Source of the DNA: Candidatus Nanohalobium sp.
GTDB taxonomy: Archaea > Nanohalarchaeota > Nanosalinia > Nanosalinales > Nanosalinaceae
Assembly: GCA_042217545.1 (NCBI GenBank)
Contig: JBDGSM010000017.1
Location: 4,755-62,487, forward strand
DNA: 57,733 bases
Direction of reading: 5' to 3'
The position numbers and the translations under genes are program-made. Under the pieces are notes generated by a model. It was not told the DNA's origin. It saw nothing but the letters and a program-made list of their open reading frames with translations, and searched no databases. Of this stretch, positions 9,466-57,576 are shown one piece after another (positions within the stretch are counted from its first letter, which is position 1; each line of letters starts with the position of its first letter).

Positions 9466-9468
9466 GGC

Positions 9469-15583: not shown

Positions 15584-15636
15584 CCTTCCCACATATCATT
15601 CTTTATATTTCTCTTTCTATCAGAGAGTGGTCGAAG

Positions 15637-16032: not shown

Positions 16033-16048
16033 CCGTAATTTTGTGTTC

Positions 16049-23816: not shown

Positions 23817-26800
23817 CTACTTTTCCTCCATAACCTCTATATACTTCTCCTCAACAAGCCTGGCGGCCTTACCGTCCGAACCATCCAGATAACGGTTCAC
23901 CAGCTCGTCGAGATCGTCCGACACGTCGAACTCCACGTCATCCTCCTTGCCCTCCTCCACAAGATCAAGCAGAAGATACAGAAGGAGGCCCTCCATCAGA
24001 TCCATATCGGATTCGATCAACTGTTCCGATACATCCCTACTCATCGACTGGAAGGCCTTGATCGCCGAAGCAGTATCACCTCGATCAACAGCATCCTGGA
24101 ACCGGGAGAACCTGTGCTCAAACAGCTTCATCTCCAGCTCGTCCCTTATCCAGTGCCTGAAATGGAACAACAGAATGATCAGGCCGGCGAAAACCGCAGC
24201 CACAAACACAGTAACTGCCACACCACTGACTTGAGACCTCTCATTATTCCTGTCCTCAGGCCTCTGAAGCGTAAAAGTCCTCTTAACCGTTCTGTTTCCG
24301 CATTTGACACGGTAACTTGTATTTCCGTACCTTAACTGTTCAGAATAGCTTATCCAAGATGTGGAGAAGTTTTTCAGGAGCTCTCCATCTCTCCGGATCA
24401 TGCATGGAGCTTTCCTGTTCAAAGTAGCATTTATGTGAACTCTTGAATCATTCACAGTAAACACCGCTACCTCTCTAAACCTGATAGGCGGTTCAGTCCT
24501 GTTCACCGCAAGAACAAGAGGTTCAGAGTAACTTGAAGCATTTCCGCGCTCCGAATAGTCAACTGTGATCGAAGAAACATTTCTTGTCCCTCTTTCCTCC
24601 TTGACAGTGTAATTATTGCTTGTACGGGCGTTCTGGACGGAGATACTCTGATCATTCCGATCTATAACAAGCAAGGAGTCAGCCGAACAGGCCTGATCAA
24701 CCACAAGCTCCGAACTGCCCTGATACAGCTTTCTGGTCGCGTTAACACATGAATCCGCACCGTAAAACTTTCTCAAACTTGTGTTGACCCCTATACTATT
24801 GAGGAAGCTTCTGTTCCACTCCATACTGGAAGTATTGTTGTATTCAATCGTAATATTCTCAGGCTCCTTCTCAGGCTCGCCACCAGGAGGATTAAAGAAC
24901 GATCCGGAAGAACTGGCTCCAGAACCCCCTGTAGAGTTCTGCTTCTTTTTCTTCGCCTTCACTTCTATACTCCTGACAAGAGCATCCCTGTAAGCGCTAT
25001 TGGACGAAGTTATGCAGGAAGCATTCCTGGAACCAGCTGAGACGGCTTTCAGATCCCAGCTCTCAGTAGATGAATTACCGTAGTCCAGGTCGCCTATACT
25101 GTAGTAAGACTGGTTCGACTCCAGCGAAAGGCCTTTACTCAGAGAGATATTCATCGAAAGATCCTTGATAACCGTATTGTTAAGCTCGTTCCCGACCGAA
25201 CAGGTGGCCTTGAACGTATCACCAACTTTTAGAGAACTTTTGGAGACGCTGAACGTGTCGTTTACCTTCAGCTTCACGGGCATAGTATACGAGGCCTTCC
25301 AGAACAGATCCATGAAGTTGCCCTGGACAAGAGGCGAGTCACAGGCAGTATCCTTCTTGAAAGGTCCGCAGTACCCCTTGGCAGTAGTATTAAGCAGCGA
25401 ATCCCTGTAAGGAGAGGAGTAATCAGAGTTACTGTTGAGATAAGCGCTCTGGAACAGGCTCAAAACCTCTGTATGCTGGTCCGGAGTGCAGTTACCAACA
25501 CAGTAACCAGTGTAGTTGCTGGAGATATTTGAGGCATTCCCTGTAACGCTCAAGTTCCTGAACGATTCATTGAACATAGAACTTGACTTCCATAGAGCAC
25601 TTCCGAGCTCAGCAGAACCGTTCATCGAAAGAGCTTTTTCTGTAAGGTTCAATGCCTTTTCACGGTAAGTTCTGTTACCTGTAACTGTGTAGGCCTCCAG
25701 GTAGCCTTTAATCATAGATGCCTGGCCCAGAGAGCTGTTACATCGGAAAGAGTAATCATAGGTCTGATTCCAGACATCACAGTCCTGTGCAGATCCTCTT
25801 GTATAGTTGAGAGCTTTCTGATAATAGGAATTTTTCCCAGTCTCCCTGTACGCGGAGAAGAGTGAAGATATCATCTTTCCCTGTTTCGTGCTTCCCTCAA
25901 CAACCTCATCAGCACCATTCGCCCCCTCACTGCAACTCATATATCCATCCTTCACCGTACAGAGCGGCGTATATGCTATGGACGTTACGTAAGGCCTTGA
26001 AACCAGGTTTTTCAGAATAAAGCTGTTGAGCTGGCTGAAATTAAAGCCGAGCAGTGATGCGACGCCCTGGATCATCGAGGCCTGTAATGCAAAGTTTTCA
26101 CATGAGTAGTCTCCACTGCGGGGCTGGCACCCTGTGTTAGGATTGTTGGTGGAGAAAGCTGTCGCCTCATCGATGAAGTTCTGCTTGATAAGAGATGGAG
26201 CAAACCTGAAAGTCCCGTTAGCCGGGAAGATCGTGTTCCGGGATTTATACCGGTACTCGTACGGTGCCTGTCTCGTAAGATTCTTTCCCGGTATTGTGCA
26301 GTTTTCAAAGAACGATAGCTTGCATTCTCTCCATGTCGAGGCGTTTTTCCTTCTGTACTGAACCCTGGGTTCTTGCAAAGGGCCTTGCATCTTGACATTG
26401 ACCGACATATTCCGTCCTAAGACCGTTTTATCGGGTATTCTCGGACTGTAGAAGCCAGGCCTGAGATCTTTCTGAAGACGGTAGGCCCTCCAGTAGTTCA
26501 GAGAGTTCATGCCCTGAATATTGGGATATTTACACGCTGTCTGGTTCCACGAGCATATGTCTGCGACTCTGGAGGATGTCAGGTTGACGGCATTCCTGTA
26601 GTAGCCGTAGTCACCAGTATACAGGTAGCCTCGCCAGAGAGCATTCTTGAGATCGGCAAACCTTCTGGTAGAGCAGTTAGTACATCTGTCCAGCCATTTC
26701 TTCGTCCTGTTCTCCGCCGCATCCGGGTAGCTGCTGTTCGAAGTATACAGATATCCTCTGAGGTAAGCCGAGATAGTTCTCGGCCCGGTATAATTGGTTT

Positions 26801-27728
26801 CGGTCAGGTTCTCTGCTATGTCCTTAAACGTGCTGTTGCCGGTCATGCTGTAGGCAGACCAGTAACCCAGAGCCATAGAGGCCTGAGCCCTGCTGTTCTC
26901 ACACCTGAAAGTGTCATTCCATACATCACACGTGTTGGCAGATCCTCCAGTATAATTAACGGCGAGCTCTCTAACAGTTTCGTTGCCTGCCAGCCTGTAG
27001 GCCTCCCACATGGCGTATATCATCGTTCCCTGTCTCGTCCCGGCGTTAGCGTCCTCCTCTACCGATCCTCCGTACTGCTCACAGTTGAAGTCCTTATCAG
27101 GATCACACGTGGCTGTAGCACCTCCGTAAGATCCCAGAGTGAAGTTGTAGAATCTTTCCCTGTTCTCCTTGGTGCGGTTAAGACTGTAGCGAGCTGCAGA
27201 GGAGAGGATCATGTATGCCTGAAACTGTTCGTATTCACATGTGAAGTCGTTGGACTTAAACTGGCAGTAAGTACCTCCAGCACTCTCAGTATCTGAAGAG
27301 TTCATAAACTTCCGCTTCAAAGTTTTATTAAGCGATGAAATGCCTAAAGCACGGTAACTATCCGGAAACTTCTCCTGACCGGAGAGAAACCGGTAACGAT
27401 ATCTATCCCTGCTATCAAACAGTTTTCCAGGCACCTGAACCCTGTAACTCCCGTTAGAATAAGTCATAGAGAACTTACTTGTCCGCTCCATCGGCGGAGC
27501 GATTTCAAGACTGACGTTCTGATCCTGCTGGCCCTGTACCGAAAAGTTTACCGGTTCGCCGGTTGAAGCATAGAGACTCGAGTTCTGCATCTTAAGGCCT
27601 GCAGCAGTACAGGTGAGACCTATCACGAGAAACGCTGCTAGAGCCGCTTTACCTCCTGTTGTGATCTCGGATTCAGGCCTCATATTATATACATGATTTT
27701 TTTGTGAATCGCTCTTACTTATAATCAT
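23817..27728 (-). CDS. Large type I membrane surface protein with an internally duplicated beta-domain plus Cys-bracketed alpha-hairpin repeat region
   Basis: 1,303 aa. It has an N-terminal signal/anchor (KAALAAFLVIGLTCTAAG) and a C-terminal TM helix (VAVTVFVAAVFAGLIILLF, around nt 24170-24240) followed by a roughly 115-aa acidic cytoplasmic tail. Very many N-x-S/T sequons. Confidence 0.8.
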   Translation of the reverse strand: MIISKSDSQKNHVYNMRPESEITTGGKAALAAFLVIGLTCTAAGLKMQNSSLYASTGEPVNFSVQGQQDQNVSLEIAPPMERTSKFSMTYSNGSYRVQVPGKLFDSRDRYRYRFLSGQEKFPDSYRALGISSLNKTLKRKFMNSSDTESAGGTYCQFKSNDFTCEYEQFQAYMILSSAARYSLNRTKENRERFYNFTLGSYGGATATCDPDKDFNCEQYGGSVEEDANAGTRQGTMIYAMWEAYRLAGNETVRELAVNYTGGSANTCDVWNDTFRCENSRAQASMALGYWSAYSMTGNSTFKDIAENLTETNYTGPRTISAYLRGYLYTSNSSYPDAAENRTKKWLDRCTNCSTRRFADLKNALWRGYLYTGDYGYYRNAVNLTSSRVADICSWNQTACKYPNIQGMNSLNYWRAYRLQKDLRPGFYSPRIPDKTVLGRNMSVNVKMQGPLQEPRVQYRRKNASTWRECKLSFFENCTIPGKNLTRQAPYEYRYKSRNTIFPANGTFRFAPSLIKQNFIDEATAFSTNNPNTGCQPRSGDYSCENFALQASMIQGVASLLGFNFSQLNSFILKNLVSRPYVTSIAYTPLCTVKDGYMSCSEGANGADEVVEGSTKQGKMISSLFSAYRETGKNSYYQKALNYTRGSAQDCDVWNQTYDYSFRCNSSLGQASMIKGYLEAYTVTGNRTYREKALNLTEKALSMNGSAELGSALWKSSSMFNESFRNLSVTGNASNISSNYTGYCVGNCTPDQHTEVLSLFQSAYLNSNSDYSSPYRDSLLNTTAKGYCGPFKKDTACDSPLVQGNFMDLFWKASYTMPVKLKVNDTFSVSKSSLKVGDTFKATCSVGNELNNTVIKDLSMNISLSKGLSLESNQSYYSIGDLDYGNSSTESWDLKAVSAGSRNASCITSSNSAYRDALVRSIEVKAKKKKQNSTGGSGASSSGSFFNPPGGEPEKEPENITIEYNNTSSMEWNRSFLNSIGVNTSLRKFYGADSCVNATRKLYQGSSELVVDQACSADSLLVIDRNDQSISVQNARTSNNYTVKEERGTRNVSSITVDYSERGNASSYSEPLVLAVNRTEPPIRFREVAVFTVNDSRVHINATLNRKAPCMIRRDGELLKNFSTSWISYSEQLRYGNTSYRVKCGNRTVKRTFTLQRPEDRNNERSQVSGVAVTVFVAAVFAGLIILLFHFRHWIRDELEMKLFEHRFSRFQDAVDRGDTASAIKAFQSMSRDVSEQLIESDMDLMEGLLLYLLLDLVEEGKEDDVEFDVSDDLDELVNRYLDGSDGKAARLVEEKYIEVMEEK

Positions 27729-27832
27729 GTACGGCCCGATCTCTCGGAGCAGGGACTCTTAATCGATTGTTTTAAATACGAGCGCCAGTTCATGTTCTTT
27801 AGAGGCGAGGGATTCTTCTTATCAGCAGAAAA
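27729..27832. promoter_or_regulatory. Divergent promoter region between the 1,303-aa and 8,305-aa surface-protein genes
   Basis: 104-nt spacer with a near-palindromic A/T box GTTTTAAATAC (about 27768-27778) usable in both directions. Confidence 0.4.
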
Positions 27833-51800: not shown

Positions 51801-52750
51801 TCGTATCAGGATCGACAGGATCCGGTAAATCCGTCACCGCAAACGTGATCGCGGAAGAAGCACTTGAAAACGACGTACCGGTAATCGTGTTCGATCCTAC
51901 AGCGCAGTGGACAGGATTCGTAAAGGAACTCAAAGACGATGACCTCGAGGAACACTACGACAGATTTGAAATGGATCCTCAGGAGGATTCAAAGCCTTAC
52001 AGGGGAGTCATCAAGGAGGTAAGCTCGGCAGAACCGGATATCAACTTCGAGGACCTGCAGAACGAGGGAGAGATCACAGTATTCACACTCAACCAATTGA
52101 CAACTGAGCAGTTCGATGAAGCAGTCAGGAATATAATCGACCAGATATTCGACAAGGATTGGGAGGAGAGCCCAGACCTGGAGATGCTTGTAGTCTTTGA
52201 CGAAGTGCACAGACTGCTGGAGGAATACGGTGGAGAAGGAGGTTACGAAGCACTGGAGAGAGGAGCCAGAGAATTCAGAAAATGGGGAATAGGCCTCATG
52301 ATGTGCAGCCAAGTCACAGCAGACTTCAAACAAGCCATCAGCGGAAACATAATGACAGAAATACAAATGCAAACCAAATCCATGGAAGACATAAACAGTG
52401 TAGAGAAAAAATACGGCGAGGAGTTCGCCAAGAGAATCTCCTCGGAAGACGTGGGTACGGGAATGATACAGAACTCGAATTACAATGATGGAGAACCATG
52501 GTTCGTCGACTTCAGGCCTACCTACCACAACCCACACAAAATCCCAGACAGCGAAATGAAAAAATACCACAACCTCTCCGAGAAACTTGACAGTATCAGG
52601 AAAGAGCTGGACAGACGGGAGGAAGAAGGAAAGGACCTGAGAGACAAGGGGCTGGAACTCCAGCTGGCCGAAAACAAACTCAAGGAAGGCAGATTCAAAA
52701 TGGCAAACATGTACATAGACAGCCTCAAAGACGAGATGGATCTAGGATGA
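27833..52750 (+). CDS. Giant (8,305 aa) multi-domain surface adhesin-like protein ending in a TM helix and a cytoplasmic HerA/FtsK-type ATPase domain
   Basis: A single stop-free frame of 24,918 nt. The N-terminal signal peptide is KRAVAILLVILLIGTVAG/HS. Domain grammar is consistent along the whole length; see the domain features and findings. Confidence 0.85.
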   Translation: MGLKSSGKRAVAILLVILLIGTVAGHSLKILDTSNSFRTSQGKSNWTVSFNSSQTGKLKIEILQGSSKIDFDKLQYKLSGKWNDRSYNVSGNTLTTNWDGNHPEGRIAFSVQKYGRYRANISIGGREVSVGNPSKAEQQNFGFDVSDPTNSFNLCALTNNFWKCNPGPEEPGASGKVVNLNPEVQKKFKVPRNSKINHFSIKLSTVEGRPVLNLTGQGTLFTDIASNNLKEILTYQGQNINAYNSSGNKIWTYNANNTINNIKSGNEIIQGNKKEVLAATKNSTLMIDHQGNLTWADRGNEYYHIAAGELSSERKTYRNDDGKAEGLACIGCTNETVIQLPYNITTGNGTYYIKTALNKYKNSGDLKLKANGTTYDIDESRIEEKAVREFKNDSGKIEDMAEIGPGNITFQAFKPNLKAKDFYLKLPLARASSTTSDLKLEISGSKYSIPSGEVSSVVDPNFTYSTQSSAEALRNIGNGEAVYKTGFDPGSNTSIYVGGRFNSIGSNADIKVKLNGTSYTIDGSDISVNNIKEFKADDGKADGSSRLKASTNSTFNLHYSMPSDINSEKVYVKAGFTYSGDKSGNPFVKAGGSKYYFPKSQITETSDVTRYVNDNQRDNYSCIGCNSSNQRAPVFDLSALNVSTLKAENARISARMCSVGNRVDDLKLSGVGLGSNVYNVNVSKIHACSKGFQDVKIPVQPGDLAEDNFIFRCSNCNKTSYYRLASDNSTGGKYSQYLVGGAPTGISSDYMINVTTDTSLNYSWAEAAVPDTAVNQGDNVTIGCDGCSGSSSYRLMTDGSNSGNSYYFNNSLKKISSDYMTRIWTNTSLNYDTAYTRVNSSDIGPNTNISFSSTGNYNILVDKNNSGNSYYAGNPLNGEYKTRIEERPVNYSYTKIKINESELNADNATLSCQNCGSSYYIGLEPSSGLKISGTADFIGKKDFGADARVWTNTSLEYDTIRTPVNWKDLGKDVNVSYFCQGCSGKAFNVLIDNNSNSSSWKYSNGYRGLNGGLMSSVEFYGSNPGDEIVGSRLFPSAIVAMDSSGNQLWNYSTSEMTYSVNIGPVVPNSIGNEVVIATKKKIRILDSSGNVLKTYPSGSSKWFRATTLEDLNSDSKDEIVTGTDSGHVIALDQNLSVIWNQGVGSKVNGLTSGNLSKSPGPEILAGLQDSSLVLFNSSGQQIQSYSRPEAVTNLESGNVLTRPGQEIGVSTSQSRLFNFYNLPEDLYLSSGGNQLWNGSGLFTGTKTVSNSSIVQGMNNQLSGCGTKSCNLSFTLGSSTGGKVLLSDPELDFTYNLSDTYDYTTNVTKWAKTSGFSSDKKLMYKASRIKYTQTPAIPIRVNRIFLPGGVGTTKVVFNNNSFQNNAYSLDLPRSLRYWRFNFLGTRPTDYIWYNSSKKASPISVTKGNLTGSSPASRNVTVARATEKTDVTFRNVTVNIPVNTSEVVKDAFLKADWNGDGNYVNITPSETGCSSFRNVTGDTRTWKVCKTVNGNGKVDEFRIVQPEIGNSSSTHNETVYKLAGITNIAPTLNRLDVSPSSTYWGQDFNFTSDFSDAEGNSLNASLWLKKDSNWTKKASSQFTGSHNFTLTSDRNWTGAVDYKVSYYDVKNGSRLHDAVNSSTESFVVEAHDTNVSYRYGAGLELDRTGETGKLGGVVYDEDDGGKLNSYTSDLYCFLYMNGTAQSVTKINGTGYCSFSLADLKRDLGLYNWHIQTYSSKGYFKKSNSATKNLTLLGNFTVDTNFSKRTAFRGNGTVKYSYENIQDALGNSVSPTYNVTWGSANNLTVEGTQQLSGSSVSGTFTGITDTTPLGLTPMKLNPRQENFNNESFVKQVRVLGLITPNLYPSKNTVFPKNDLVNLTARLRDRQSNQITQASVDFNTPPGFCTATYQNRNVYKCQYNPDNSLAAGTYNWSIDATRQNYRLNDTKSQINVGTGIRADSNVTTGTVYRYSKASGSNTVYYNVTDIRDDTGQLDNVSWKALWEGSIIQSGKTNSTGFNFSYTVPENQNPGSKTAKLKLEKTGYRKYTDTSTVDVDGSINASLETRPNENLTATLRDMKDNPISGSSVTFHTPPGQCLKKYSIGNKYYCEYNADQGLSKGQYRWNISVNDPDYSYQQNKSANISIQSQISANLTLQSGPYYRANSSTSNPTNPSLQIANSNPSSVNYTISLGGKTVASGQVSGGSKYLTFNVPDTASLGTQTVTINLKKNGYEDLTKTFGREIRGTLTADLYQAEDVFRNNSVTRNNYNLTTNLKANITNALGQQVGGLSTSFNIPGGECITSYSNSYNYSCTYDPNILASVGNQTWSVTASAAGYEPVTSNQGSFYLKNVIRPDFLSSGEGYRRDRTKSLKVQALNPSDNSVDASYTSSYYIGPDYLGGNSGTGTVSFSWSPSCTRSVGGYTIDANITSNDPRYEVYQGQDSGNISVRADLNLNISSPLNSSVSGKNYQQGSNVNLATDLATQCGDPVNMSGTDIIWKASDRDTTKIISSGKTASWNIPESFTGETNITAYGDNYYYVGGSDTNKILIERVLNINTTGGFTDKLRTFGGSYDYPFSAEIITGDGKKAYNSSLNENWNKFNISFYVDGNKVKELRTDSQGSVNTTINLGSQYNPGTHTLKAYLENTTAINTTILNDKYTKDIKLTDQASVDMSRPKSGQKSYGQEVNLISSINTATGNENALNIDYNWIFKDNDTQRYISSSKVSSWIIPSYAYGPGNISVVAQNDYLTTATNTTDVTVNRKTNIEKYDPYKYVEPDTVNKLNATIDIPGLQNKSGYKVTFWTGSYSNQHTVKTGPNGTATYKWNTSGLSKGAYNTGVFIKDAPPSYFKAVDPKSVNRTLVIPDKLNISAYYRDNNEENANGNNFPNLPDKVVYRNPGPWKNPDKIFLAANVTTPFANSGDKYDVENATVDFWINGTSDNGQQITEKIGQDNVNLTAFQQGLNDNKDQWWDEYTAHTSWNPRGNLPVGAYNLKINATHPVPGFNPDPIRRPLEIRGVLNITITDPPAWEDTYQMDNLTFSAQVEDMNGNDIPVSSLDQAIWTLQEDGCANSGDAGASGWSAGTFDWSSAIAHGPKTGSLSSWIVMGNTGYYNIGGGELVWLNAEKQYFNVTRNEYRRGFTDCSAVHHQEDGPKGQINSQFEGDREDRVGIQHDMRARTESVVSEPSQTEVATNNRDMLNITARYYEFNTTQGLPNDFEGTYHATCKECTQSKNKNLSQSAYSYRDQDVAQFRFNFSNEKYRKNYTFTIWATSSDSDFGAVDPYATDSREYRVYKSLGSGTGSVNINGKCENGETAVSAPPDCGFDNLPEHYWLNQTADPGINASDKNPASNDTQYNEFRNTSSPAYENNKAWYAAHSHYSSEYAGGCDFDGKEDDKYEEPDVCPDYFSSDNKPQIKSTQVNPPYVKSGNQANVTAKVRDIDGDLQSVDLIDKSTNSKVTSMSTTSGSCTTYCTFTTTITVSSVKTYYVKAQDSANNTATGNNVDARTDDNPVNITNVTVLGQDPRKKNANLDVDMNVSNVDIPGGATPDSIKEANIEGKTPYVLKHGSNWAVLEQTITADPNDETVNVNVTEYPGYQDSATATYNVDNTIPNVTNEQVTPSLVKNGDKVNFTATITDNALDREYIKRTDNGNKVCTNSSFTNTGGDTYKCSINAPYKTGSFTYRFYAMDKADNTNDSETVTLSVDSHPPEITGLSSDKYIRPNQTVTISANVNDVEGHLDSAMLVTMNQFYNDSMNVVCDDQEFQGSCQVSPNKSTDYMIYANDTLGNENLNFSQDYVEVKVDEFKPNVELQNQETNFSGTVNIKARVNDTPPEVANGGFEQGNTGQWKFTQSSTNITNGTGYCTDDNGDGTSYCAFFDGSVYPKTTAQNNITGQKADRIAGKSVEFSGSLWGERNNFGLETDSSKASYKEYGGEDDARFHIKAWDGSNNLIKDKKGVWASHYTSNRTSGEMTNVSNGFKVPSSAKTISVQLDGGDLQGSAANAYDSFFDSIKLGPSNLDTSSVKYAFSNSSGNYTSSGAGFGSLPHDTGNNFSTSVDTTGLEDGYYMLTVKASDAVNNQAIYRKEVKVDNEPPEIDFRENISRKAKITVSDGSNQKKITLRPGIEKYPVSFSGTSGSATLDILMNSSTPLETGLINSLVLKASDGSVIRNISTESQWDQGSYSGLSTDGRTSSALGLGSQNGSSGDSLVGYWRFNRKVSGKGGTIPDSSGNSNKATLLNGSDITGDGIYSTNSVDLNGINQSVRADKSADLNSSSLTFSTWFKMDRNLTCSSNNNWRSFAHKGSSTSGSNRGWDIVLEEGGATAFDVNGTRWWPDSFHDEKVGYPLDEWHHYTYTYKASTGRMAFYKDGKLIDYYYKEPGPIRPAASQLKIGGGTDTGCPSGSGYVPGSYDEVQVYDQALAKSQIQDLYSKTSNAYKGTYTDSFSTSKAVKSIEVNTDNLWNSRVQNTETFNISIFDELLNDDPSTYKYRINGGSYQSIQNLGNSSFSATKDTTGLSNGWNSIEAKASDTEGNTGTKRFRFFVDNQNPSISAISANTSITNGDTVGLSADISDSSLNASSVNFTLINATDQAFEKDPSESCDYTSSKLSCSSAWTPSGLKDGSYNFKVHASDLMGHKASNQDPGESFYLDTKKPNITSSGINDSFVQSSQNLLVWALANDDHNVSTVKAEGYSLSEQPAGNWSSVIPVTDGVVNLTVKDVAGNKKSYGNLNYTIDDKRPQISGLTSNASADFAQGDQVVRFELNASDSHMRSVGLKNRSSGKYVGMVNGSKQTWYLKIRPKQLGLVEQEYNLTARAIDKADNLRKDYYNITIDNSPPRIKKVVLNDTVIRSNTEIAVNATVNDRAPDWVNANGVNLSQNGNLWKGTINVNLSTENPVNVTAEDLAGNFNSNASVGYTIDNTAPTISAFVSNASSGVTRSDAELRFNVSTSDANMRNVTVQGEGLTQGSPWFLKATPGSLGCATGVADQNCTLTAKSTDKADNTQSRDLNITVDDVRPDVGNFTSNVSIIRPGSAVYFTADIDDANVRNVTVRNSTDTVCEMTRVSGTNYSCSTQLYNSSDYFVDALDLAGNVNDTQSVNIETDTTPPRFLSFGSNATYNASRSGANLNFTAVAEDLRLEKVSIGGIKASNLSSTYSLVRTPGELGCPTTGESVCGISFYAEDVPGNSKNRTYNLTVDNIDPDINLVKIDDQIIQSNSTVKATVNVSSETDTDLEYVKAEGQGLTWNGSLWTGNIKVDNDGYVNASTKDKAGNTDLNESVQYIIDDQAPNAYSFNSNTSQDVSRSDKVLNFNLNANDNYQLRDVKIWNKTSGKKLDMTNTGGTRYAVNTTPASLGCPEGVNRKSCDLTVTATDRADNKANTSYTLTTDDIAPDIQDINFNDTDTVVKPNKTLKTNLTLVDDKQSTISELKVENQSISQKSKNSTGGLKSIWEGSITIDNDGFLNITARDQAGNTNTDNSTEYIVDDTSPTIQNLNTNSSNGVIRSDQTLNITVNASDRYNLSSVTVNGLNMHKTGKWIWNRADTAGDLGCTTDGNCELQAKAFDQAGWNSSTRKYLKIDNTNPNVGTLTALNASDGSPDAALGKWNLDWRLFNTTDATNLTVKLYAINGTTGKSTGGNTTVLKQFNQTSYRTVKRPVYFNATNGTYTLVANVTDEAGNRVNTTYRLAITAQPPEIPDAWASNKRPEEDREKATIKANITDTNEIDTTKMTILNTGKTFTNLTLLQPATGNRTGGIYGVDYTPPDNGYYNISVTGIDGTDERRTEEFDRVFKAIGKTSGNLSMNAQRTVFDNITQNYTGRTPVDVNFTNTGLAGSYQTSIQPALVQAGVTTNSTGKNCGRVDNGSSCQATILINVSPQASPGTKRVAEFADWVNPDGTNASISDTLGLTVKKNPVLKLRKDKISKDVWWNQKVNVTNLSAYSFGNYKLKNVTATVSQSYLNNSATNNLLGSYYRFFGEGNNVSKDETGNSSFQVQIPDKGRYIFELKSKASNNQNCGGNQCSDTKVVDLDVFRKTDVNFLTSPGEKYRGSNYLQARVVNGEGNNVNGYTVGFYDNGSLIQNVSMSGGLADFNWNTEQKQLGFHNLTARIWDDESNHFRTIDSTESVGVTLNDSLQISRDINDRDMYWYDNQTDHNVTLNYTVRNRNGYSVENATVSLISNSSDKFKHVGSCRTDPNGKCNITWNTNVSTPVNATIRSKAYKNRYYDNSTTNDSIVEIKGGFSVEIGVPDTGLNWKNDTDLIVGRNQYLKALITDENGTSVTPNNINWTINTSSGYKQIGNSKNLTWTVSGVSTGPHELNVSTETQQGVKTSDTVNVGVYEPVDISVNSVSPGNTERKNSTVQINANVTNTRTGNPLDGYRCKLSDQSEGEFINSTQSLSSGLCTMTWNTEYTDFVGTHNLRIDIPENRTGTWYLPVKNSAETRSVTLTEKLNLSVQKPRGIIHRYTSQDLQAEARNAYNKTSATIEWRHGGSNVQPNGTGKQGDWNTSGLSLGAYRLNTTASKPQYTSDLVRNNLTVYGYSKVNFNESGLYTSGDRINLSFRAEDVNTTTGIADYPVQVYRKYENGSYKAWRNGTTGSSGWYNTTWNTTNDSIGDYKLKADISDNSTLYYNNTNSNVTRSFFVGGTLNLNITGLSKETVYRDQLTEPSETVIEANVTNGGIPVSNAAKVEFDFSGKKIGECLTNSTATTGLCNITWNPGSDRKVGVQNITAQASADNYFNSSKARRQIEIRTGIRPYFRDKKETASFNFSSKQGLNITPQVIETFTGDGVGNYNFNLGYGDRKDDIEVETSKKAWSNDSATLADMNSSLAISGTSTVNVSAEDREIITLNVSKATENFSLGFRRNSSWKQAFKGSFNGTRNLEIPDGKIKALNISTSGNITLESLKLVDTDLANRKELMRRRILGQFGNSRMNFENSKPHNDYSRCMNSGSCVLNGTYVGTEPGFNDSVEGSRTPGVFSGKALLANITNMSANDSVSIRRPYLEYYPGEKNFSSSDLLSFWIQSDIPFNMTVEDGPDGSGVCSYRESYNSTDLWELKQYNLSEYREQCGVGVAQISWNFHHRGTGNVSTLVGLDQVSKLTPAKTNVNGTRNLELLPGKTGQYDFKLGIKQSGFYNLSQSTAFKTININTGRGRKSVAGKKIGGETQRKEIAPTGQVNTTDFWVEPDYINATVAAETYGTFGKATIYNNKTKDLFLQLYEGNRADLLDVQDNVTVKASTPRTQELHDVGLGFNSSQPGTYNGTVTFFDPATRNYDTVNVTLNVRNIIMNIVNTSAEHGRDNITSGDTITAYANVTYNNTKQISDAGWKASIQGDKCSNVNSKYINSTGLWKISCSAPGIKKNPVNVSYELTALKDNLEIKARKGLKYRDVTPPFVVSKTGDNVRQGENATVRLEAVDNVGIDNVTGTGIYLGNSTKVGNVSFSKVNGRYVGNLTHTGSKGDYDVKARLEDVNGHTRTVRIPVSVFPFVNFTGSMKDMKADFRFQRPSSNTTLIDASTDESYNLKVQNRSYDVNIDVQPDRPEKVGEPVHNIEFINTSVKGNMTDPVSVSPVENGNPVNFQHPSGTTNNTFTGVSINSSFNFSKATITLNYSNNEDFDEADENNLRVFKCEYGAAGKCNTSDWRQLNTTINITENTVKSSTNSTSSYIVERLYTPNNNQGGNQGQQNKNKKKNKNGGFPGGLTGNGKNSNQSKQDNKSDIAKEPFILSPHIFQPIMFRGDERTFLLKIENNREKTINLNMSIEGELRKLLGPKHSSMNISANSTAVTELRASIPEDAKIKTYTGQIIAQYGNVTVNSSQSILVSRKGSEGFHLNVKALTKNVEPGSNFSFQTKINKITLETPLQVNMTHYFRESDTDKVILKLNNSFKVSDSKTIKRKISTKDIPSGSYYVQTVAKAGNTTVVDSATVVIKESFWTPLKTRALILIIAVILISVLGWKGYQYYWTKKEEEARYVFPVDYNRLPDEIEDNYWVGKIAETEKDAYIDPSDLTTHAIVSGSTGSGKSVTANVIAEEALENDVPVIVFDPTAQWTGFVKELKDDDLEEHYDRFEMDPQEDSKPYRGVIKEVSSAEPDINFEDLQNEGEITVFTLNQLTTEQFDEAVRNIIDQIFDKDWEESPDLEMLVVFDEVHRLLEEYGGEGGYEALERGAREFRKWGIGLMMCSQVTADFKQAISGNIMTEIQMQTKSMEDINSVEKKYGEEFAKRISSEDVGTGMIQNSNYNDGEPWFVDFRPTYHNPHKIPDSEMKKYHNLSEKLDSIRKELDRREEEGKDLRDKGLELQLAENKLKEGRFKMANMYIDSLKDEMDLG
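30890..31500 (+). other. Beta-propeller-like repeat region (FG-GAP/PQQ-like blades) inside the giant protein
   Basis: Repeated blade-like units: GDEIVGS..VAMDSSGNQLWNY, GNEVVIAT..ILDSSGNVLKTY, KDEIVTGTDSGHVIALDQNLSVIWN and GPEILAG..LVLFNSSGQQIQ. Confidence 0.55.
39262..39825 (+). other. CBM4_9-like carbohydrate-binding (jelly-roll) domain inside the giant protein
   Basis: It starts with the hallmark ANGGFEQGNTGQW, ends with ...FFDSIKLGP, and is about 185 aa long. Confidence 0.5.
40386..41060 (+). other. LamG / concanavalin-A-like lectin domain inside the giant protein
   Basis: LVGYWRFN...IPDSSGNSNKATLLNG...LTFSTWFK...WHHYTYTY...MAFYKDGKL...YDEVQVYDQAL is the Laminin_G_3 pattern. Confidence 0.6.
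41716..44503 (+). repeat. Tandem array of about 85-105-aa Ig-like domains in an alternating A/B di-domain super-repeat (about 5 copies)
   Basis: Domain boundaries carry [VIT]D[ND]xxPx[IV] motifs at nt 41716, 41971, 42265, 42524, 42806, 43075, 43358, 43618, 43927, 44219 and 44503. Confidence 0.7.
51584..51640 (+). other. Single C-terminal transmembrane helix of the giant protein
   Basis: ALILIIAVILISVLGW is followed by the positively charged KGYQYYWTKKEEEAR, consistent with positive-inside topology and a cytoplasmic downstream domain. Confidence 0.7.
51670..52747 (+). other. HerA/FtsK-superfamily (DUF87-like) P-loop ATPase domain of the giant protein
   Basis: Walker A GSTGSGKS (nt 51809-51832), Walker B LVVFDEVH (around 52188-52211) and the REFRKWGIGLMMCSQ segment typical of HerA-like ATPases. 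Confidence 0.7.
52232..52722 (+). repeat. 491-bp perfect direct repeat, copy 1 (3' end of the giant gene)
   Basis: Identical base for base to 54106-54596 (offset 1,874 nt). A further 17 identical nt follow a single C/T mismatch at 52723/54597. Confidence 0.9.
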
Positions 52751-54624
52751 AGAAAAAAATAGCACTTATAGGTCTCGCACTGTTGCTTACAGGAACAGCA
52801 GCAGGTATGTCCGTTCACAGCGAGATACCAGCCCTGAGCACGATCTTCAAGCAGAAACAGGAGATATACACCGTGAGGATAACAAACACCAAGAACTTCT
52901 CGCAGACCTACAGCTTAAGGCCTGAGAAAGACCTGGAGAAGCTAGTAAACGTGAGAAGAAAGATCTCTATCGGCGCAGGCGAGTCAAAGGAAGTCAAGAT
53001 TGAAATCAACGGGAAAGGCCTTAGCGACGGACTCTACGCAGGCAATATACTTGTGAAGAGCAATACAGGCGAGGAGAAAGGAATACCTGTCGGTTTCAGA
53101 GTTGTAAGGAAGAAGAACTCCGATCTCCGGCTTGACGTGCAGACAACATCTGGCTCTATGAGGCCTAAAGGAAGCATCAATGTCCTGACCGTACTCTCAT
53201 CGAACGAGGGGAAGAACGTGAGCGGTACAATCACTTACGGCATAAGAGACGCCACTTCCGGAGTCAGGATCTACAAGACGACCCGGAACGTCTCCATAAC
53301 CAGGTTCGGATCCTTCACGCATGAGATAGACCCTTTAACAGAGGTCTCTCTGGGCGAGTACTACATACAGGCCAGGCTGGACACGGGGAACAGGACAGTA
53401 ACTGCGACCGATACCTTCCGGTCAACTAACCCGTTCTGGTCAGCTACAAGGATAAAGATCGCACTCTTCCTCGCAGTCGGAGCGATCATCATAGGCGGAG
53501 GATTCTACACACAGAGATGGTACCAGCAGCACAAGGACGAGGACGCACGGTACGTCTTCCCGGTTGACTACGAGAAGCTACCGGACGAGGGAGAAGACCA
53601 GTACTGGGTCGGAAAAGTGGCAGAGACGGAGAAAGACGCATTCATCAATCCGAAAGACCTGACAACACACGCCATAGTCGCAGGAAGCACAGGATCAGGC
53701 AAATCCGTCACCGCAAACGTCGTAACAGAGGAAGCACTTGAAAACGACGTGCCAGTAGTAGTATTCGATCCTACAGCACAGTGGACAGGATTCGTAAAAG
53801 AACTCAAGGACGACAACGTCGAGGAACACTACGACAGATTCGATCTCAACCCTGAAGACGACACAAAACCCTACCCGGGCATAATCAAAGAAGTGACCAC
53901 AGGAGATCCGGATATCGATTTCCAGCAGCTCAAACAGCCCGGAGAAATAACCGTCTTCACCCTCAATGAACTTACAACAGAACAGTTCGACGACGCAGTT
54001 AGAAGCATCATCGACCAGATATTCGAGATCGAATGGGAGGAAAGCTCAACACTGGAAATGCTGGTCATATTCGACGAAGTCCACCGCCTACTCGAAAAAT
54101 ACGGGGGAGAAGGAGGTTACGAAGCACTGGAGAGAGGAGCCAGAGAATTCAGAAAATGGGGAATAGGCCTCATGATGTGCAGCCAAGTCACAGCAGACTT
54201 CAAACAAGCCATCAGCGGAAACATAATGACAGAAATACAAATGCAAACCAAATCCATGGAAGACATAAACAGTGTAGAGAAAAAATACGGCGAGGAGTTC
54301 GCCAAGAGAATCTCCTCGGAAGACGTGGGTACGGGAATGATACAGAACTCGAATTACAATGATGGAGAACCATGGTTCGTCGACTTCAGGCCTACCTACC
54401 ACAACCCACACAAAATCCCAGACAGCGAAATGAAAAAATACCACAACCTCTCCGAGAAACTTGACAGTATCAGGAAAGAGCTGGACAGACGGGAGGAAGA
54501 AGGAAAGGACCTGAGAGACAAGGGGCTGGAACTCCAGCTGGCCGAAAACAAACTCAAGGAAGGCAGATTCAAAATGGCAAACATGTACATAGACAGTCTC
54601 AAAGACGAGATGGACATGTCTTAA
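52747..54624 (+). CDS. Membrane-anchored HerA/FtsK-type ATPase with two Ig/CARDB-like ectodomains; paralogue of the giant protein's C-terminal module
   Basis: Signal peptide MKKKIALIGLALLLTGTAAG, TM helix IALFLAVGAIIIGGGFY (around 53452-53505), Walker A GSTGSGKS (53683-53706) and Walker B LVIFDEVH. ATGA overlap with the giant ORF stop. Confidence 0.85.
   Translation: MKKKIALIGLALLLTGTAAGMSVHSEIPALSTIFKQKQEIYTVRITNTKNFSQTYSLRPEKDLEKLVNVRRKISIGAGESKEVKIEINGKGLSDGLYAGNILVKSNTGEEKGIPVGFRVVRKKNSDLRLDVQTTSGSMRPKGSINVLTVLSSNEGKNVSGTITYGIRDATSGVRIYKTTRNVSITRFGSFTHEIDPLTEVSLGEYYIQARLDTGNRTVTATDTFRSTNPFWSATRIKIALFLAVGAIIIGGGFYTQRWYQQHKDEDARYVFPVDYEKLPDEGEDQYWVGKVAETEKDAFINPKDLTTHAIVAGSTGSGKSVTANVVTEEALENDVPVVVFDPTAQWTGFVKELKDDNVEEHYDRFDLNPEDDTKPYPGIIKEVTTGDPDIDFQQLKQPGEITVFTLNELTTEQFDDAVRSIIDQIFEIEWEESSTLEMLVIFDEVHRLLEKYGGEGGYEALERGAREFRKWGIGLMMCSQVTADFKQAISGNIMTEIQMQTKSMEDINSVEKKYGEEFAKRISSEDVGTGMIQNSNYNDGEPWFVDFRPTYHNPHKIPDSEMKKYHNLSEKLDSIRKELDRREEEGKDLRDKGLELQLAENKLKEGRFKMANMYIDSLKDEMDMS
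54106..54596 (+). repeat. 491-bp perfect direct repeat, copy 2 (3' end of the 625-aa ATPase gene)
   Basis: Identical to 52232-52722. The upstream parts of the two ATPase domains are only about 80% identical by eye. Confidence 0.9.
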
Positions 54625-54659
54625 ATACAGGCGAAAGCAAATAAACAGTGTAAAATACT

Positions 54660-56930
54660 ATGGGAGTCCTGGACAAGATCAAAGGCAGCAGCACCGACAA
54701 GGACCAAGTAAAGGAAGAAGTGAATGAACAGGTCAAAGAACTCAAGGAACAGGCCTCCAACCAGAAAAAAGAAGAAAACTCACAGGAAGAAATACAGGAG
54801 AAGGACGAGACAACCGAAGAACGTCCAGAACCTGAAGAAATAGAGGAAAAAGAAGAGCAGGAAAGAGAGGAGGAAGAAGCGGAAGAGACCTCACAGGAAG
54901 AAGATTCTGAACAGGTTGAAGAAGAAAGCAGTTCCGAAGATTCTGAGGCCTCAGAAAAAGATGATGAAGCAGACGATGAGCCGGAGACTGTCGGAGCTAT
55001 CGCAAGAGAGGACCAGGACATAGACTACGATCCCGAGGAGCATCAGGACCAGGAAGAGGAAGAAGACGAGATAGAGCTCCAGGACCTTATGCAGAAGACC
55101 GAGAAGCTGGAAGGCCGGTTCGAATCATTCGAGAGCTTCCAGGATCAGGTAAACCAGCGTCTCAGCAATCTTTCCGAGAAGATCGGCGAAGTCCGCTCCA
55201 TGGTCCTGGAACAGGAGAAAGAAGTTGACGACATCAAACAGGGCTACAAGAAGATAGAAGACATCTACGAGGACATGGAGCCCGAAAAGATCAATAAACG
55301 ATTTGAAAAGATCAAGGGCAACGTCGACAAGATCCAAGGCCAATCAGAACAGAACAAAGAACTTCTGGACAACTTACAGAACACCGTAGATGACATAGAA
55401 GACGCACTTGACCAGGTAGACGACTTCGACAACCTGGCGGAGATGCATGAATCACTGCAGAAGAAAGTGGACAAGGTAGAGCAACTCAAACGTGAAGTAA
55501 ACGAGAAAGAATCCAAAGTCGAGTCAATGTTCGGCGAACTGGAGGAAAGACTGCCAGAACTCGACTCAGTAAAACAGAAGACCGAACAGCACGAAGAAAT
55601 GCTACAGAACCAGGTAAAAGACATAGACCAGGTCAAACTCGATTTAGACGACAAACTGGACGAAGAAAGCATCACAGACAAGCTCGAAGAAGTCCTGGAC
55701 GACGAAGAAAAGGATATAGAAGGCCTTGTAACCAGGAAAGACCTCGAAGAGGAAATGCAGGAAGAAAGAGAAAGCCTAAAAGACCTGGAAACAGACGTGC
55801 AAGGCCTGAAGGAGGATATAAAATCCCGACAGGAAGACATAGATGCCGTAGGCGAAAACGAGGAGAAGATACAGGACCTCAAAGACAGGATTCGGGGCCT
55901 GGAGGACACGGCCGAGGAGGAGGACGAAAAAATACAGGAGGAAACCGAAAAGCTCCGCGGAAGACTTGAAGAACTGGAAGGTCATGTAAAGGACAGGGAG
56001 AACATCAAATCAATAGTAAAGACCTACCAGGAGGCAAAGAACAGCAAACTCCAGAGCAGATTTGAAGACATCGAGGAAAGACTTGAGGAAGCGGAGAGCA
56101 ATGATGAAGAGGAAGAACTCCAGGAAGAAGTTCAGGACCTGGAAGAAGAAGTTGAAGGCCTTAAGGACAACCTCAAGACACTTAGAGAGAGCTCCGGCGA
56201 CAAAGAAAAGATCGAAGAGCTTGAAGAACAGTTCAGAGGCCTCGAAGAAGAGCTGGACGAGGAAATGGATGATCTCAAGCAGAACCTGGATAGCGGCGAG
56301 GAGCTCTCGGAACTCGAGGAAAGAATCGGAGAACTCGAGAAACGTGAGAGAGGTCTCGAAGAGAAGATAGACGAAAGAGTTGATGAAAAAGTCTCCGGCG
56401 TACGTGAGAAAGCTGAAAAAGCGGAGAAGAACGGCGACAAGATCGAGATCCTGCGCAAGGACTTCAAAGAAGCAAAGGAGAAGAGAAGCAGCGATGTCGA
56501 AGACCTTGAGGAAGAGGTATCAAACGTACAGGAACGTCTGAACTCCAAGGAAGACCAGGAAGATTTCAACAAGCTTGAGAACCGTGTCGAAGAAGTTGAA
56601 GGCCTGAAAGACGACATTGATAAGATCGAGGAGAACCGTGAACGCCTAGAAAGCCTTAAGAAAGGTGTTAAAGAGCTTCAGGAAGACGAGAACTCGGGCC
56701 AGGAGGACCTGAGGGAGAAGGCCTCAGACCTGGATAAGAAGGTTAGAGAACTTGAGGAGAAAGTCGACGGCGGAAGCAGTCTCGAGGAACGTGTTGAAGA
56801 AATCGAGAAGGAGCTTAAGAACGGCAGGGACCTTGAACAGGAGGTTCAGGAGCTCTCTGAACTTGTGCTAAAACTGGCAAGACAGCAGCAAGGATTCGGC
56901 GATGAAGGAGTACAAGAACGTAGAATGTAG
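54660..56930 (+). CDS. Hyper-acidic coiled-coil protein (756 aa)
   Basis: A roughly 150-aa E/D/S-rich disordered N-terminus is followed by about 600 aa of heptad-like E/K/L/D repeats. It starts 35 nt after the ATPase gene on the same strand. Confidence 0.75.
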   Translation: MGVLDKIKGSSTDKDQVKEEVNEQVKELKEQASNQKKEENSQEEIQEKDETTEERPEPEEIEEKEEQEREEEEAEETSQEEDSEQVEEESSSEDSEASEKDDEADDEPETVGAIAREDQDIDYDPEEHQDQEEEEDEIELQDLMQKTEKLEGRFESFESFQDQVNQRLSNLSEKIGEVRSMVLEQEKEVDDIKQGYKKIEDIYEDMEPEKINKRFEKIKGNVDKIQGQSEQNKELLDNLQNTVDDIEDALDQVDDFDNLAEMHESLQKKVDKVEQLKREVNEKESKVESMFGELEERLPELDSVKQKTEQHEEMLQNQVKDIDQVKLDLDDKLDEESITDKLEEVLDDEEKDIEGLVTRKDLEEEMQEERESLKDLETDVQGLKEDIKSRQEDIDAVGENEEKIQDLKDRIRGLEDTAEEEDEKIQEETEKLRGRLEELEGHVKDRENIKSIVKTYQEAKNSKLQSRFEDIEERLEEAESNDEEEELQEEVQDLEEEVEGLKDNLKTLRESSGDKEKIEELEEQFRGLEEELDEEMDDLKQNLDSGEELSELEERIGELEKRERGLEEKIDERVDEKVSGVREKAEKAEKNGDKIEILRKDFKEAKEKRSSDVEDLEEEVSNVQERLNSKEDQEDFNKLENRVEEVEGLKDDIDKIEENRERLESLKKGVKELQEDENSGQEDLREKASDLDKKVRELEEKVDGGSSLEERVEEIEKELKNGRDLEQEVQELSELVLKLARQQQGFGDEGVQERRM

Positions 56931-57231
56931 ACGCTGCGGCTACCAGTGGTATTCTGAACAGTTTGAAGAGGAAGGTGATGTTCCCAGTCAGTGTCCACGG
57001 TGTTATCAGGAGGCGGTACGTGAGATACCGGAGCCACCTACCAGATTTGATATCTGGAGGGAGGAAACAGCGAAGAAGTGGAACGAGCTGCCCGGAAAGA
57101 TCAAGAAGACAAAGCATAGGGCCGTGGTCTGGAAGGAAAACAACAAACTCCTGATCTCGCTGATCAATACAGGCCTTATCATCACTTTACTGGTTGCCGG
57201 CTTAATTTACCTGCTTTTCGTCCGGGGGTAG
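56902..57231 (+). CDS. Zn-ribbon protein with C-terminal transmembrane anchor
   Basis: CRRCG...CPRC four-Cys ribbon and a C-terminal helix LLISLINTGLIITLLVAGLIYLLF. It overlaps the upstream gene by 29 nt. The start is uncertain. Confidence 0.5.
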   Translation: MKEYKNVECRRCGYQWYSEQFEEEGDVPSQCPRCYQEAVREIPEPPTRFDIWREETAKKWNELPGKIKKTKHRAVVWKENNKLLISLINTGLIITLLVAGLIYLLFVRG

Positions 57232-57233: not shown

Positions 57234-57258
57234 GAAAGACTTTAATCCACGCAGATAG
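57234..57258 (+). repeat. 25-nt direct repeat copy 1 (GAAAGACTTTAATCCACGCAGATAG), promoter-like
   Basis: Perfect match to 57600-57624. It contains a TTTAAT box. Confidence 0.8.
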
Positions 57259-57336: not shown

Positions 57337-57576
57337 ATGAAATCTTTAGTAGAGCTTTTTGTAACCTCCATCGGTATATTCATCGTCGCTGTAGGGATAG
57401 CAGTGTTGGATTCTAGTCTTATTCCCGGGTTATCAGCTTACCGAACTCCTCTGGCTATTCTTATTATCTTACTTGGAGGATCGATTGGAATTTACGGCCT
57501 CGGACTCAACTCCGATGAATCAAAGAAAGATAGGCTCCTTGACTTTTTGGAAGCCCTTCTACAAGGAGCGCCTTGA
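57337..57576 (+). CDS. Small two-helix membrane protein
   Basis: 79-aa hydrophobic ORF flanked by a 25-nt direct repeat. Confidence 0.45.
   Translation: MKSLVELFVTSIGIFIVAVGIAVLDSSLIPGLSAYRTPLAILIILLGGSIGIYGLGLNSDESKKDRLLDFLEALLQGAP

Follow-up and report, generated by a model that had tools for sequence, protein, structure and literature searches.

The window analysed here (57,733 nt from Candidatus Nanohalobium sp., GCA_042217545.1, contig JBDGSM010000017.1, positions 4,755 to 62,487 of the forward strand) contains a cluster of five genes. It is almost certainly a giant surface-protein locus of the SPEARE type, from a new relative of SG9 among the nanohaloarchaea, very small halophilic archaea that spend their life attached to a host. 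It encodes a 910-kDa glycosylated adhesin that passes the membrane once and ends in a cytoplasmic ATPase of the HerA clade, while the product of the overlapping gene is a paralogue that shares this ATPase but has only two immunoglobulin (Ig)-like domains outside. Genes for an acidic coiled-coil protein of 756 amino acids (aa) and a small Zn-ribbon protein come after them, and a gene for a 1303-aa surface protein is divergent to the giant one. This island is layered, consisting of a deep two-gene core (ATPase and coiled coil), a nanohaloarchaeal four-gene operon and a patchy accessory. The first-pass annotation of the same DNA had proposed that all five genes form an apparatus coupling external attachment to an energy-consuming process at the membrane. 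Its interpretation is partly supported, as the gene unit is real and conserved and the ATPases are of the ring-type HerA clade, but the five genes do not appear to be equally integral to it. New in comparison with the literature searched are the ATPase and coiled-coil module spread across the DPANN archaea, the assignment to the HerA clade and the concerted evolution of the two ATPase domains.

Identity and layered composition of the locus

The "SPEARE" protein family of Nanohaloarchaeota was described by Hamm et al. 2019 (PMC6642349) and re-interpreted by Reva et al. 2023 (PMC10266531), who saw in it a giant adhesin rich in Ig domains, equipped with a VirB4/TraG-like ATPase and followed by a second ATPase gene. 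Attachment combined with transfer at the host contact is already published as a hypothesis in both papers. The loci of SG9 (8553-aa protein and AQV86_02330), Nanohalococcus occultus (SVXNc_0300/0299) and Nanohalovita (BNXNv_0298/0297) are orthologous to that of the window, have the same gene order and share with it the signal peptide, β-propeller, LamG and Ig-like domains, one transmembrane (TM) helix, P-loop ATPase and helical tail. The giant protein of the window has 8305 aa with an N-terminal signal peptide, an extracytoplasmic bulk containing a laminin-G and multiple Ig-like adhesion domains, one C-terminal TM segment and a conserved cytoplasmic P-loop domain, common to SG9, Ca. Nha. antarcticus and other DPANN archaea. 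Blastp aligns about 3330 aa in the last part of the protein collinearly with its orthologues, with an identity of 61% to the SG9 protein and of 46% to those of Nanohalovita and Nanohalococcus (8880 and 9409 aa). The small ATPase, encoded immediately downstream, is 75% identical to metagenomic proteins, 74% to AQV86_02330 of SG9, 64% to the protein of Ca. Nanohalovita and 62% to that of Ca. Nanohalococcus; a look-up of its exact sequence matched no contig. It is because of the 74% identity to SG9, the gene order shared with closed genomes, the collinearity of the giant and the agreement with published descriptions that we assign the cluster to the SPEARE type. The window differs from the known loci in belonging to another species (no database gave a match above 75%), in carrying a fresh 491-nt conversion tract and in having the divergent 1303-aa gene, no homologue of which turned up for SG9, Nanohalovita or Nanohalococcus in the list of homologue hits.

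Every coordinate of the 33-kb cluster was reproduced by a mechanical list of open reading frames (ORFs), and an ORF of 8305 codons is not a chance product. The ATGA overlap of the giant and small ATPase genes (52747-52750), the 35-nt gap ahead of the coiled-coil gene (54625-54659) and the 29-nt overlap of the coiled-coil and Zn-ribbon genes (56902-56930), all listed in the first-pass annotation, agree with these coordinates. Its 104-nt divergent spacer (27729-27832) is correct for the annotated starts, but is probably about 149 nt long if the 1303-aa gene starts at M16. Such a start (27683, giving 1288 aa) is the probable one, because the annotated ATG adjoins the conserved ATTATAAGTA block and the N-termini of homologues (1290-1292 aa) fit M16.

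For a wider comparison one genome per GTDB species was scanned, which gave at least 575 confirmed ATPase-encoding loci; the best 80 were compared (individual loci and contigs are designated by L numbers), and partner genes were counted with hidden Markov models run on six-frame ORFs of these 80 loci, 77 of them assessable for the coiled-coil core. In the three closed genomes the giant gene is followed by that of the small ATPase, with overlapping stop and start, and then by genes for proteins of 512-741 and 108-115 aa. Synteny, which the first-pass annotation had proposed to check, is thus conserved: the order giant, small ATPase, coiled coil, Zn-ribbon/TM is kept in SG9, Nanohalovita, Nanohalococcus, L006, L007 and L090, and the overlap of the giant stop with the small ATPase start is also found in L002-L007. 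In QJJ-5 (L009) the small ATPase, coiled coil and Zn ribbon are kept without an adjacent giant; within 9707-16540 they occur together with a convergent gene of the 1303-aa family, and a different contig (L008) carries a fragment of the giant type.

A homologue of the coiled-coil core was found in 69 of the 77 assessable loci, in 63 of them directly downstream of the ATPase gene on the same strand and often with a 4-nt overlap. Loci with the core belong to Aenigmatarchaeota, Woesearchaeota, Nanohaloarchaeota, Hydrothermarchaeum and unclassified DPANN metagenome-assembled genomes (MAGs). Unbiased clustering of neighbours registered the ATPase in 83 loci, the coiled coil in 72 and the next family in only 23. 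The coiled-coil protein is the only near-universal partner of the ATPase, and there is a high probability that the two make up a conserved functional module. Of the five genes taken for one unit, near-universal presence is confined to this pair; the Zn ribbon is essentially nanohaloarchaeal and the 1303-aa family is patchy. The module-bearing contigs L018, L030, L042, L047, L050 and L082 are binned as Heimdallarchaeota or Methanosarcinales MAGs; they may be mis-binned DPANN contigs or a genuine occurrence beyond DPANN.

The 756-aa protein is, as predicted from the letters, a long and acidic coiled coil (pI, isoelectric point, of 4.25; all-helical), for which the AlphaFold2 (AF2) model gives four long helices. 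Its alignment with relatives revealed a strongly conserved core of about 250 aa and a conserved C-terminal motif. An exhaustive HMMER search brought 213 clusters (50% identity) at E<=1e-10 with the core matched in one stretch; a word-indexed homologue search with the core gave two proteins only. Searching the PDB with the core profile and scanning 30 members with Pfam brought up only generic coiled-coil noise (DUF1664, Laminin_II, SNARE, prefoldin), and Foldseek found no matches to the model. A reading of this protein as SMC/Rad50 was rejected, NCBIfam matches to SMC/Rad50/ASRP and PADLOC matches to LmuB/JetC being coiled-coil noise far below cut-offs. The family is therefore uncurated, having no Pfam, NCBIfam or PDB counterpart beyond such noise, and we found no description of it in the literature searched, so that it is among the points new to the SPEARE locus. 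Ahead of the core, within aa 1-100 (54660-54960), most members have a short motif with an invariant-looking Gly in charged, disordered sequence (TVGAIAREDQDIDYDP in nanohaloarchaea, LLGF(L/V)KK or RYGV(I/T) elsewhere), which is a candidate docking peptide.

The Zn-ribbon protein fully bears out its first description, having four invariant Cys and a C-terminal TM segment. It is 46-80% identical in SG9, Nanohalovita and Nanohalococcus and matches Zn_ribbon_PF0610 and FmdB weakly. It was found in all nanohaloarchaeal loci examined (including a Nanoanaerosalina-like contig) and in L090, and its range beyond nanohaloarchaeal loci is limited to one weak homologue, in L026. The 1303-aa protein, in turn, is a patchy accessory component. 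Homologues with 41-49% identity are divergent to the giant gene in the four closest contigs (L086-L089), and distant members of the family lie near the ATPase and coiled-coil module in L009, L012, L035, L037, L042, L047, L050 and L082, being divergent in L012 and convergent in L009, while in L047, L050 and L082 they immediately follow the coiled-coil gene. All 60 N-x-S/T sequons of this protein precede its TM segment, in the ectodomain, and Cys pairs are invariant in the family. Faint matches of the (α/α)6 type (PF06662 in the protein itself, PF07944 in homologues) hint weakly at an (α/α)-toroid-like fold of its modules; the family profile found nothing significant in the PDB.

Adhesin, ATPase class and concerted evolution

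According to the first-pass annotation two proteins of the cluster have lectin- and Ig-rich ectodomains. This is true of the giant, with its laminin-G (4e-17) and Big_13 (8.8e-16) domains, but is not borne out for the 1303-aa protein with its Cys-rich modules. The giant was scanned with Pfam as ten 900-aa tiles. Internal repeat matches mark a tandem Ig-like region at aa ~4500-5450, which includes the best Big_13 domain, and weaker Big_1/Big_3_4 matches are present in the ectodomain; β-propellers were described in the giant orthologue by Reva et al. (PMC10266531). No protease, toxin or nuclease family was found among the ten tiles or in the ATPase region. Since 372 N-x-S/T sequons precede the second hydrophobic segment and only one follows it, the ectodomain should be outside and the C-terminus in the cytoplasm. 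The ectodomains are not acidic (pI 5.8 in the giant and 8.3 in the 1303-aa protein, compared with 4.3-4.5 in the cytoplasmic parts), which one would not normally expect of proteins exposed by an extreme halophile; their sequon density is about 4.6 per 100 aa.

Both ATPase domains, which had been noticed as membrane-tethered and ring-forming, match DUF87 and HerA_C above the Pfam cut-offs. The AF2 model of the 625-aa paralogue (pLDDT 80) consists of a signal helix, two β-sandwiches, a TM helix (233-266), two short strands (286-300) between this helix and the ATPase, a RecA-like core and a three-helix tail; a separate HAS barrel ahead of the ATPase is not evident in it. Among the top 50 Foldseek matches those to the ATPase are HerA hexamers only, and the ectodomain resembles tandem Ig/FnIII (fibronectin type III) modules of the WxLIP/RbmA type. 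A profile of 14 sequences found Sulfolobus HerA best in the PDB (4d2i, 1.8e-9), then SIR2-associated HerA and YjgR; structures of VirB4, TrwB and FtsK were absent from both the PDB profile matches and the Foldseek top 50. All of 14 diverse homologues keep the Walker A (GSTGSGKS), Walker B (FDEVH) and REFRKWG motifs unchanged. PADLOC gave a generic HerA model (4.9e-16), and the best NCBIfam matches, CedD (3.7e-12) and HerA (1e-9), were far below their cut-offs (45.7 bits against 600 for CedD), as was CedB (15.7 against 700). FtsK/SpoIIIE (PF01580) scored 17.5-18.6 bits with a gathering score of 24. The VirB4 N-domain (PF03135) was absent at E<=10 in SVXNc_0299 (P0014), in P0010 and in the first 268 aa of the paralogue from the window, and at E<=0.01 it was also unlisted for the full-length 625-aa protein. 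A plasmid or conjugative origin was rejected after tblastn had found no match in 72,556 plasmids. Because the best sequence and fold matches are to HerA, the VirB4 N-domain is undetected, plasmid relatives are lacking and the motifs are invariant, we therefore file the domain under the HerA clade of the FtsK-HerA superfamily and regard it neither as a restriction enzyme nor as a demonstrated VirB4. A defence-system reading was also discarded, since PADLOC matched nothing but generic HerA models and a Sir2, nuclease or DUF4297 partner is absent.

Over their last ~360 codons the giant and small genes are 87% identical at the nucleotide level, with an identical tract of 491 nt flanked by regions of 71-84%. 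Within L003, L004, L007, L035 and L023 the giant and small domains are 86-97% identical in aa, above any identity between genomes, while in the window, SG9 and L006 giant domains group with giants and small ATPases with small ones. In paralogue comparison the synonymous divergence (dS) was 0.5-1.6 and the ratio of nonsynonymous to synonymous divergence (dN/dS) 0.01-0.15; against SG9 the latter was 0.07-0.08 for the small ATPase, coiled-coil and Zn-ribbon genes. This pattern agrees with episodic gene conversion and strong purifying selection after it, so that both copies are functional. Decay into pseudogenes, named beforehand as one outcome that would speak against the unit, is contradicted by the low dN/dS of the pair together with intact Walker A, Walker B and Arg-finger motifs. 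Tandem big and small ATPase pairs were registered in 15 further loci, where the upstream gene always runs off the locus and exceeds 3188 aa wherever the full 10-kb flank is available; complete single adhesin-ATPase genes (2184-3589 aa) are all without a small paralogue.

Possible mechanism and its rivals

The best overall explanation, which we favour by a little more than an even chance, is that of a host adhesin fused to a hexameric translocase, which is anchored in the membrane and docks the coiled-coil partner. The ATPase domains would assemble, in the way of HerA, into a hexameric ring apposed to the membrane, and this ring would dock the coiled-coil protein through its C-terminal helical tail, while the Zn-ribbon protein may hold this partner at the membrane. 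In the nanohaloarchaeal lineage the ring may be mixed, with few giant subunits filled in by small ones that would relieve the steric load of ~900-kDa ectodomains. Such an arrangement, to which we give slightly less than even chances, would explain gene conversion keeping the two ATPase domains alike. With ectodomains bound to glycans or proteins of the host surface, the ring would spend ATP on moving a polymer where the two cells touch. DNA is the most likely one, being favoured by the biology of the family (HerA, FtsK) and by the paired membrane-anchored importers CedB/CedD, though this analogy makes it only a tentative and rather doubtful choice, with protein as the alternative.

In Sulfolobales two paralogous TM-anchored HerA-clade ATPases, CedB and CedD, are needed for DNA import (PMC11868833). 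The Ced system (CedB and CedD with CedA/A1/A2) resembles the window locus in this pair and in acting at cell-cell contact, and CedD is the top NCBIfam match of the window ATPase. On the other hand, the locus is devoid of a CedA-like polytopic protein and CedA1/A2 pilins, its N-terminal domains are extracellular adhesin modules instead of the cytoplasmic VirB4-NTD-like folds of Ced, and it has a coiled-coil partner, none being reported for Ced in PMC11868833. The HerA translocases (HerA-NurA, SIR2-HerA, DUF4297-HerA) are closest in sequence and fold of the ATPase core, and they also are rings that dock a dedicated partner protein. These systems, however, are soluble; they carry a HAS barrel at the N-terminus and work with an enzymatic partner (nuclease, Sir2), whereas in the window ATPase a TM helix and ectodomain seem to replace the HAS region, and its partner is a non-enzymatic coiled coil. 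Type VII secretion combines in one operon a membrane-anchored ATPase of the FtsK-HerA superfamily (EssC/EccC, with tandem ATPase domains and FHA domains in EssC) with small single-TM and large surface-exposed membrane proteins (EsaA/EssA/EssB). Its likeness to the locus is one of operon make-up, by analogy only; the partners have no detectable homology, tested only by the Pfam FtsK_SpoIIIE match below cut-off.

Several points weigh against the translocase explanation. Translocation by the locus is here read from genes, and a docking role of the coiled-coil protein from gene adjacency, its core having matched neither a structure nor a family. A polytopic channel protein (VirB6/CedA analogue) is missing from the locus, so that with one TM helix per ATPase subunit a conduit is not evident. 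The CedD match spans the Walker A region only. Most DPANN loci have one adhesin-ATPase of 2200-3600 aa without a small paralogue, and five incomplete genes of more than 3900 aa also lack it, therefore a mixed ring is not obligatory. Within-genome similarity at dS of about 1 could reflect old conversion or parallel constraint instead of co-assembly, and metagenome assembly could have exaggerated the identity over 491 nt.

Among the alternatives the type IV secretion-like "straw" of Reva et al. 2023, in which VirB4/TraG-family ATPases inject effectors into the host, survives best and is nevertheless improbable. VirB4, TraG/TrwB, FtsK and HerA do belong to one superfamily, weak matches to T4SS-DNA_transf (2.3e-4), TrwB_AAD_bind (2e-4 to 3e-3), TraC (1e-6) and VirB4-like families were obtained with Pfam and NCBIfam, and membrane anchoring together with a surface adhesin is reminiscent of type IV secretion (PMC10266531). 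But the reported VirB4 N-domain was not reproduced even in the SVXNc_0299 protein, and the N-terminal region of the window paralogue is modelled as two extracellular Ig-like domains that follow a signal peptide. The best sequence and fold matches lead to HerA and the plasmid search was empty. Neither a VirB6/CedA-like polytopic channel nor pilin or coupling-protein genes were found among the five genes or the recurrent neighbours in the 80 loci. The straw model fails the two defining features tested.

Just below it in probability we place the possibility that the ATPase ring and coiled coil are a cytoplasmic scaffold which clusters, tensions or remodels adhesins, by inside-out control or by generating force, with nothing crossing the membrane. 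It agrees with the single TM helix per subunit and the missing channel, with the scaffold-like look of a long variable coiled coil around a conserved core, with fusion of the ectodomain to the ATPase in essentially all loci and with the conserved cytoplasmic tail that the accessory 1303-aa surface protein also has. Strict conservation of catalytic motifs, however, points to real ATP turnover, and we know of no characterised member of the FtsK-HerA superfamily that works as a scaffold; members thread DNA or protein.

Much less probable is the original SPEARE model (Hamm et al. 2019), with a serine protease and a pore-forming toxin-like region in the ectodomain that open the host envelope and a cytoplasmic type III restriction endonuclease degrading imported DNA. 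In its favour, Ca. Nha. antarcticus expresses the SPEARE protein (PMC6642349), and ResIII (PF04851) does match both ATPase domains (6e-7 to 1.3e-5). This match is confined to the helicase P-loop part and lies under the stronger DUF87/HerA match, no nuclease domain accompanies it, and the tiles of the giant contain no protease or toxin family; Reva et al. concluded likewise for orthologues (PMC10266531). The nuclease part of the model is by now largely refuted. Finally, the variable neighbours past the Zn-ribbon gene and the absence of the 1303-aa gene from hit lists of several relatives could suggest genes that are merely adjacent, with the small ATPase a decaying duplicate, but gene order kept across genera and phyla, overlapping stops and starts and the low dN/dS values leave this next to no probability, and for the four-gene core synteny and selection already refute it.

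Host attachment and resource extraction by DPANN archaea have the giant SPEARE proteins as their most conspicuous candidates, for which two mutually inconsistent annotations are in print. The window orthologue and the 80 loci give a cleaner parts list, namely an adhesin-fused HerA-clade motor, a near-universal coiled-coil partner and lineage-specific accessories, and turn a vague "giant adhesin" into a defined complex of two to five proteins testable in existing co-cultures. One can go further and suppose that the adhesin-fused ATPase with its coiled coil is a DPANN-wide cell-contact translocation machine distinct from type IV secretion, Ced/Ted and type VII secretion, to which nanohaloarchaea have added a "filler" ATPase paralogue (mixed ring), the Zn ribbon and the (α/α)-toroid surface protein. 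We consider this broad version speculative and, taken as a whole, rather unlikely; if true, the machine would be what has long been sought, a device that lets these genome-reduced symbionts draw DNA or other polymers from the host.

Feature coordinates, candidate promoters and neighbouring genes

Table 1. Positions of genes, domains and sequence blocks of the cluster in the window.
Feature	Position	Strand	Remarks
1303-aa surface protein	23817-27728	-	N-terminal signal/anchor; two tandem Cys-rich modules, possibly (α/α)-toroid-like
TM of 1303-aa protein	24180-24236	-	aa 1165-1183; conserved cytoplasmic tail of ~110 aa after it
ATTATAAGTA block (TACTTATAAT on + strand)	27716-27725	-	abuts annotated ATG 27726-27728; invariant in 4 related spacers
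GTTTTAAATACG	27769-27780	+	conserved; candidate TATA box of giant gene
5'-leader block GAGGGATTCTTCTTATC	27807-27823	+	conserved; giant gene, after GTTTTAAATACG
Giant adhesin-ATPase	27833-52750	+	8305 aa, 910 kDa; orthologue of SG9 8553-aa SPEARE protein
Signal peptide of giant			aa 6-24; hydrophobic segment, sequon-rich ectodomain after it
β-propeller-like region of giant	30803-31483	+	aa ~991-1217; weak Pfam match (1.2e-5), below cut-off
Laminin_G_3/ConA-like lectin domain of giant	40544-41050	+	aa 4238-4406; PF13385, E=4e-17, 63 bits
Best-scoring Big_13 Ig-like domain of giant	42581-42811	+	aa 4917-4993; PF19077, E=8.8e-16
Single TM helix of giant	51560-51616	+	aa 7910-7928; hydropathy; sequons drop from 4.7 to 0.27 per 100 aa
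Cytoplasmic HerA-clade P-loop ATPase of giant	51728-52513	+	aa ~7966-8227; DUF87 5e-13, HerA_C; limits from paralogue model
Identical 491-nt tract, giant copy	52232-52722	+	100% identical to 54106-54596
C-terminal helical tail of giant	52547-52735	+	after ATPase domain
Small 625-aa paralogue	52747-54624	+	signal peptide; two Ig/FnIII-like β-sandwiches, aa 21-226
TM of small ATPase	53443-53544	+	aa 233-266
HerA-clade ATPase domain of small paralogue	53602-54387	+	aa 286-547; helical tail aa 559-621
Identical 491-nt tract, small-gene copy	54106-54596	+	100% identical to 52232-52722
TCTTAAATAC	54619-54628	+	spans small ATPase stop codon; 31 nt upstream of coiled-coil ATG
Acidic coiled-coil partner, 756 aa	54660-56930	+	acidic disordered N-terminus, variable coiled coil, C-terminal LSELVLKLA motif
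Helical core of 756-aa protein (~210-250 aa)	54960-55703	+	aa 101-348; conserved
Tail-anchored Zn-ribbon protein, 109 aa	56902-57231	+	CxxC...CxxC (C9, C12, C31, C34)
TM of Zn-ribbon protein	57145-57213	+	aa 82-104

Conserved blocks of the divergent spacer may serve as promoters of both genes, the ATTATAAGTA block being a candidate TATA box of the 1303-aa gene and GTTTTAAATACG a putative one for the giant gene. Six genomes show hardly any variation in the final 25 nt of the small ATPase gene and the ATAC after them, and TCTTAAATAC itself is invariant; this nucleotide conservation is kept despite saturation of synonymous sites between the window and SG9. TCTTAAATAC and the box at 27773-27780 of the divergent spacer have TTAAATAC in common. 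The TCTTAAATAC block is a candidate internal promoter, from which a leaderless transcript of the coiled-coil and Zn-ribbon genes might start. Scans for tRNA and Rfam families gave no matches in the window, and no RNA component is evident.

Reva et al. (PMC10266531) singled out a PAC2 gene (proteasome assembly chaperone-like) downstream of the giant-protein operon in Nanohalococcus. Beyond the Zn-ribbon gene neighbours vary among genomes (enolase, DEAD_2 helicase, PAC2), the SG9 operon being followed by enolase, not PAC2, and the flank of the window consists of housekeeping genes (XPB-like helicase, PCNA, primase, eIF2-alpha, PAC2). PAC2 is found here on the opposite flank (22860-23624), convergent with the 1303-aa gene, as compared with 13876-14640 in L004; its adjacency looks like a rearranged housekeeping flank and not like a part of the operon. 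In L010, L011, L019 and similar loci of Aenigmatarchaeota a protein of more than 900 aa, a ~73-aa protein (9 loci), an adhesin-ATPase of ~2950 aa and the coiled-coil partner are encoded in succession (3-2747, 2752-2970, 3023-11752 and 11749-12894 in L010), and the family of the large neighbour recurs in 23 loci. An extra ORF of ~300 aa lies between the ATPase and coiled-coil genes of five loci (L038, L048, L055, L077 and L080; gap ~900-990 nt; 11823-12740 in L048), two of the five matching the ATPase profile very weakly. Just after the Zn-ribbon gene of the window an exact 25-nt direct repeat, GAAAGACTTTAATCCACGCAGATAG, with the TATA-like TTTAATCC, has its first copy (57234-57258), upstream of a 79-aa ORF with two TM segments (57337-57576). 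The second copy (57600-57624) stands 12 nt upstream of the enolase start (57637), and the repeat looks like a duplicated promoter.

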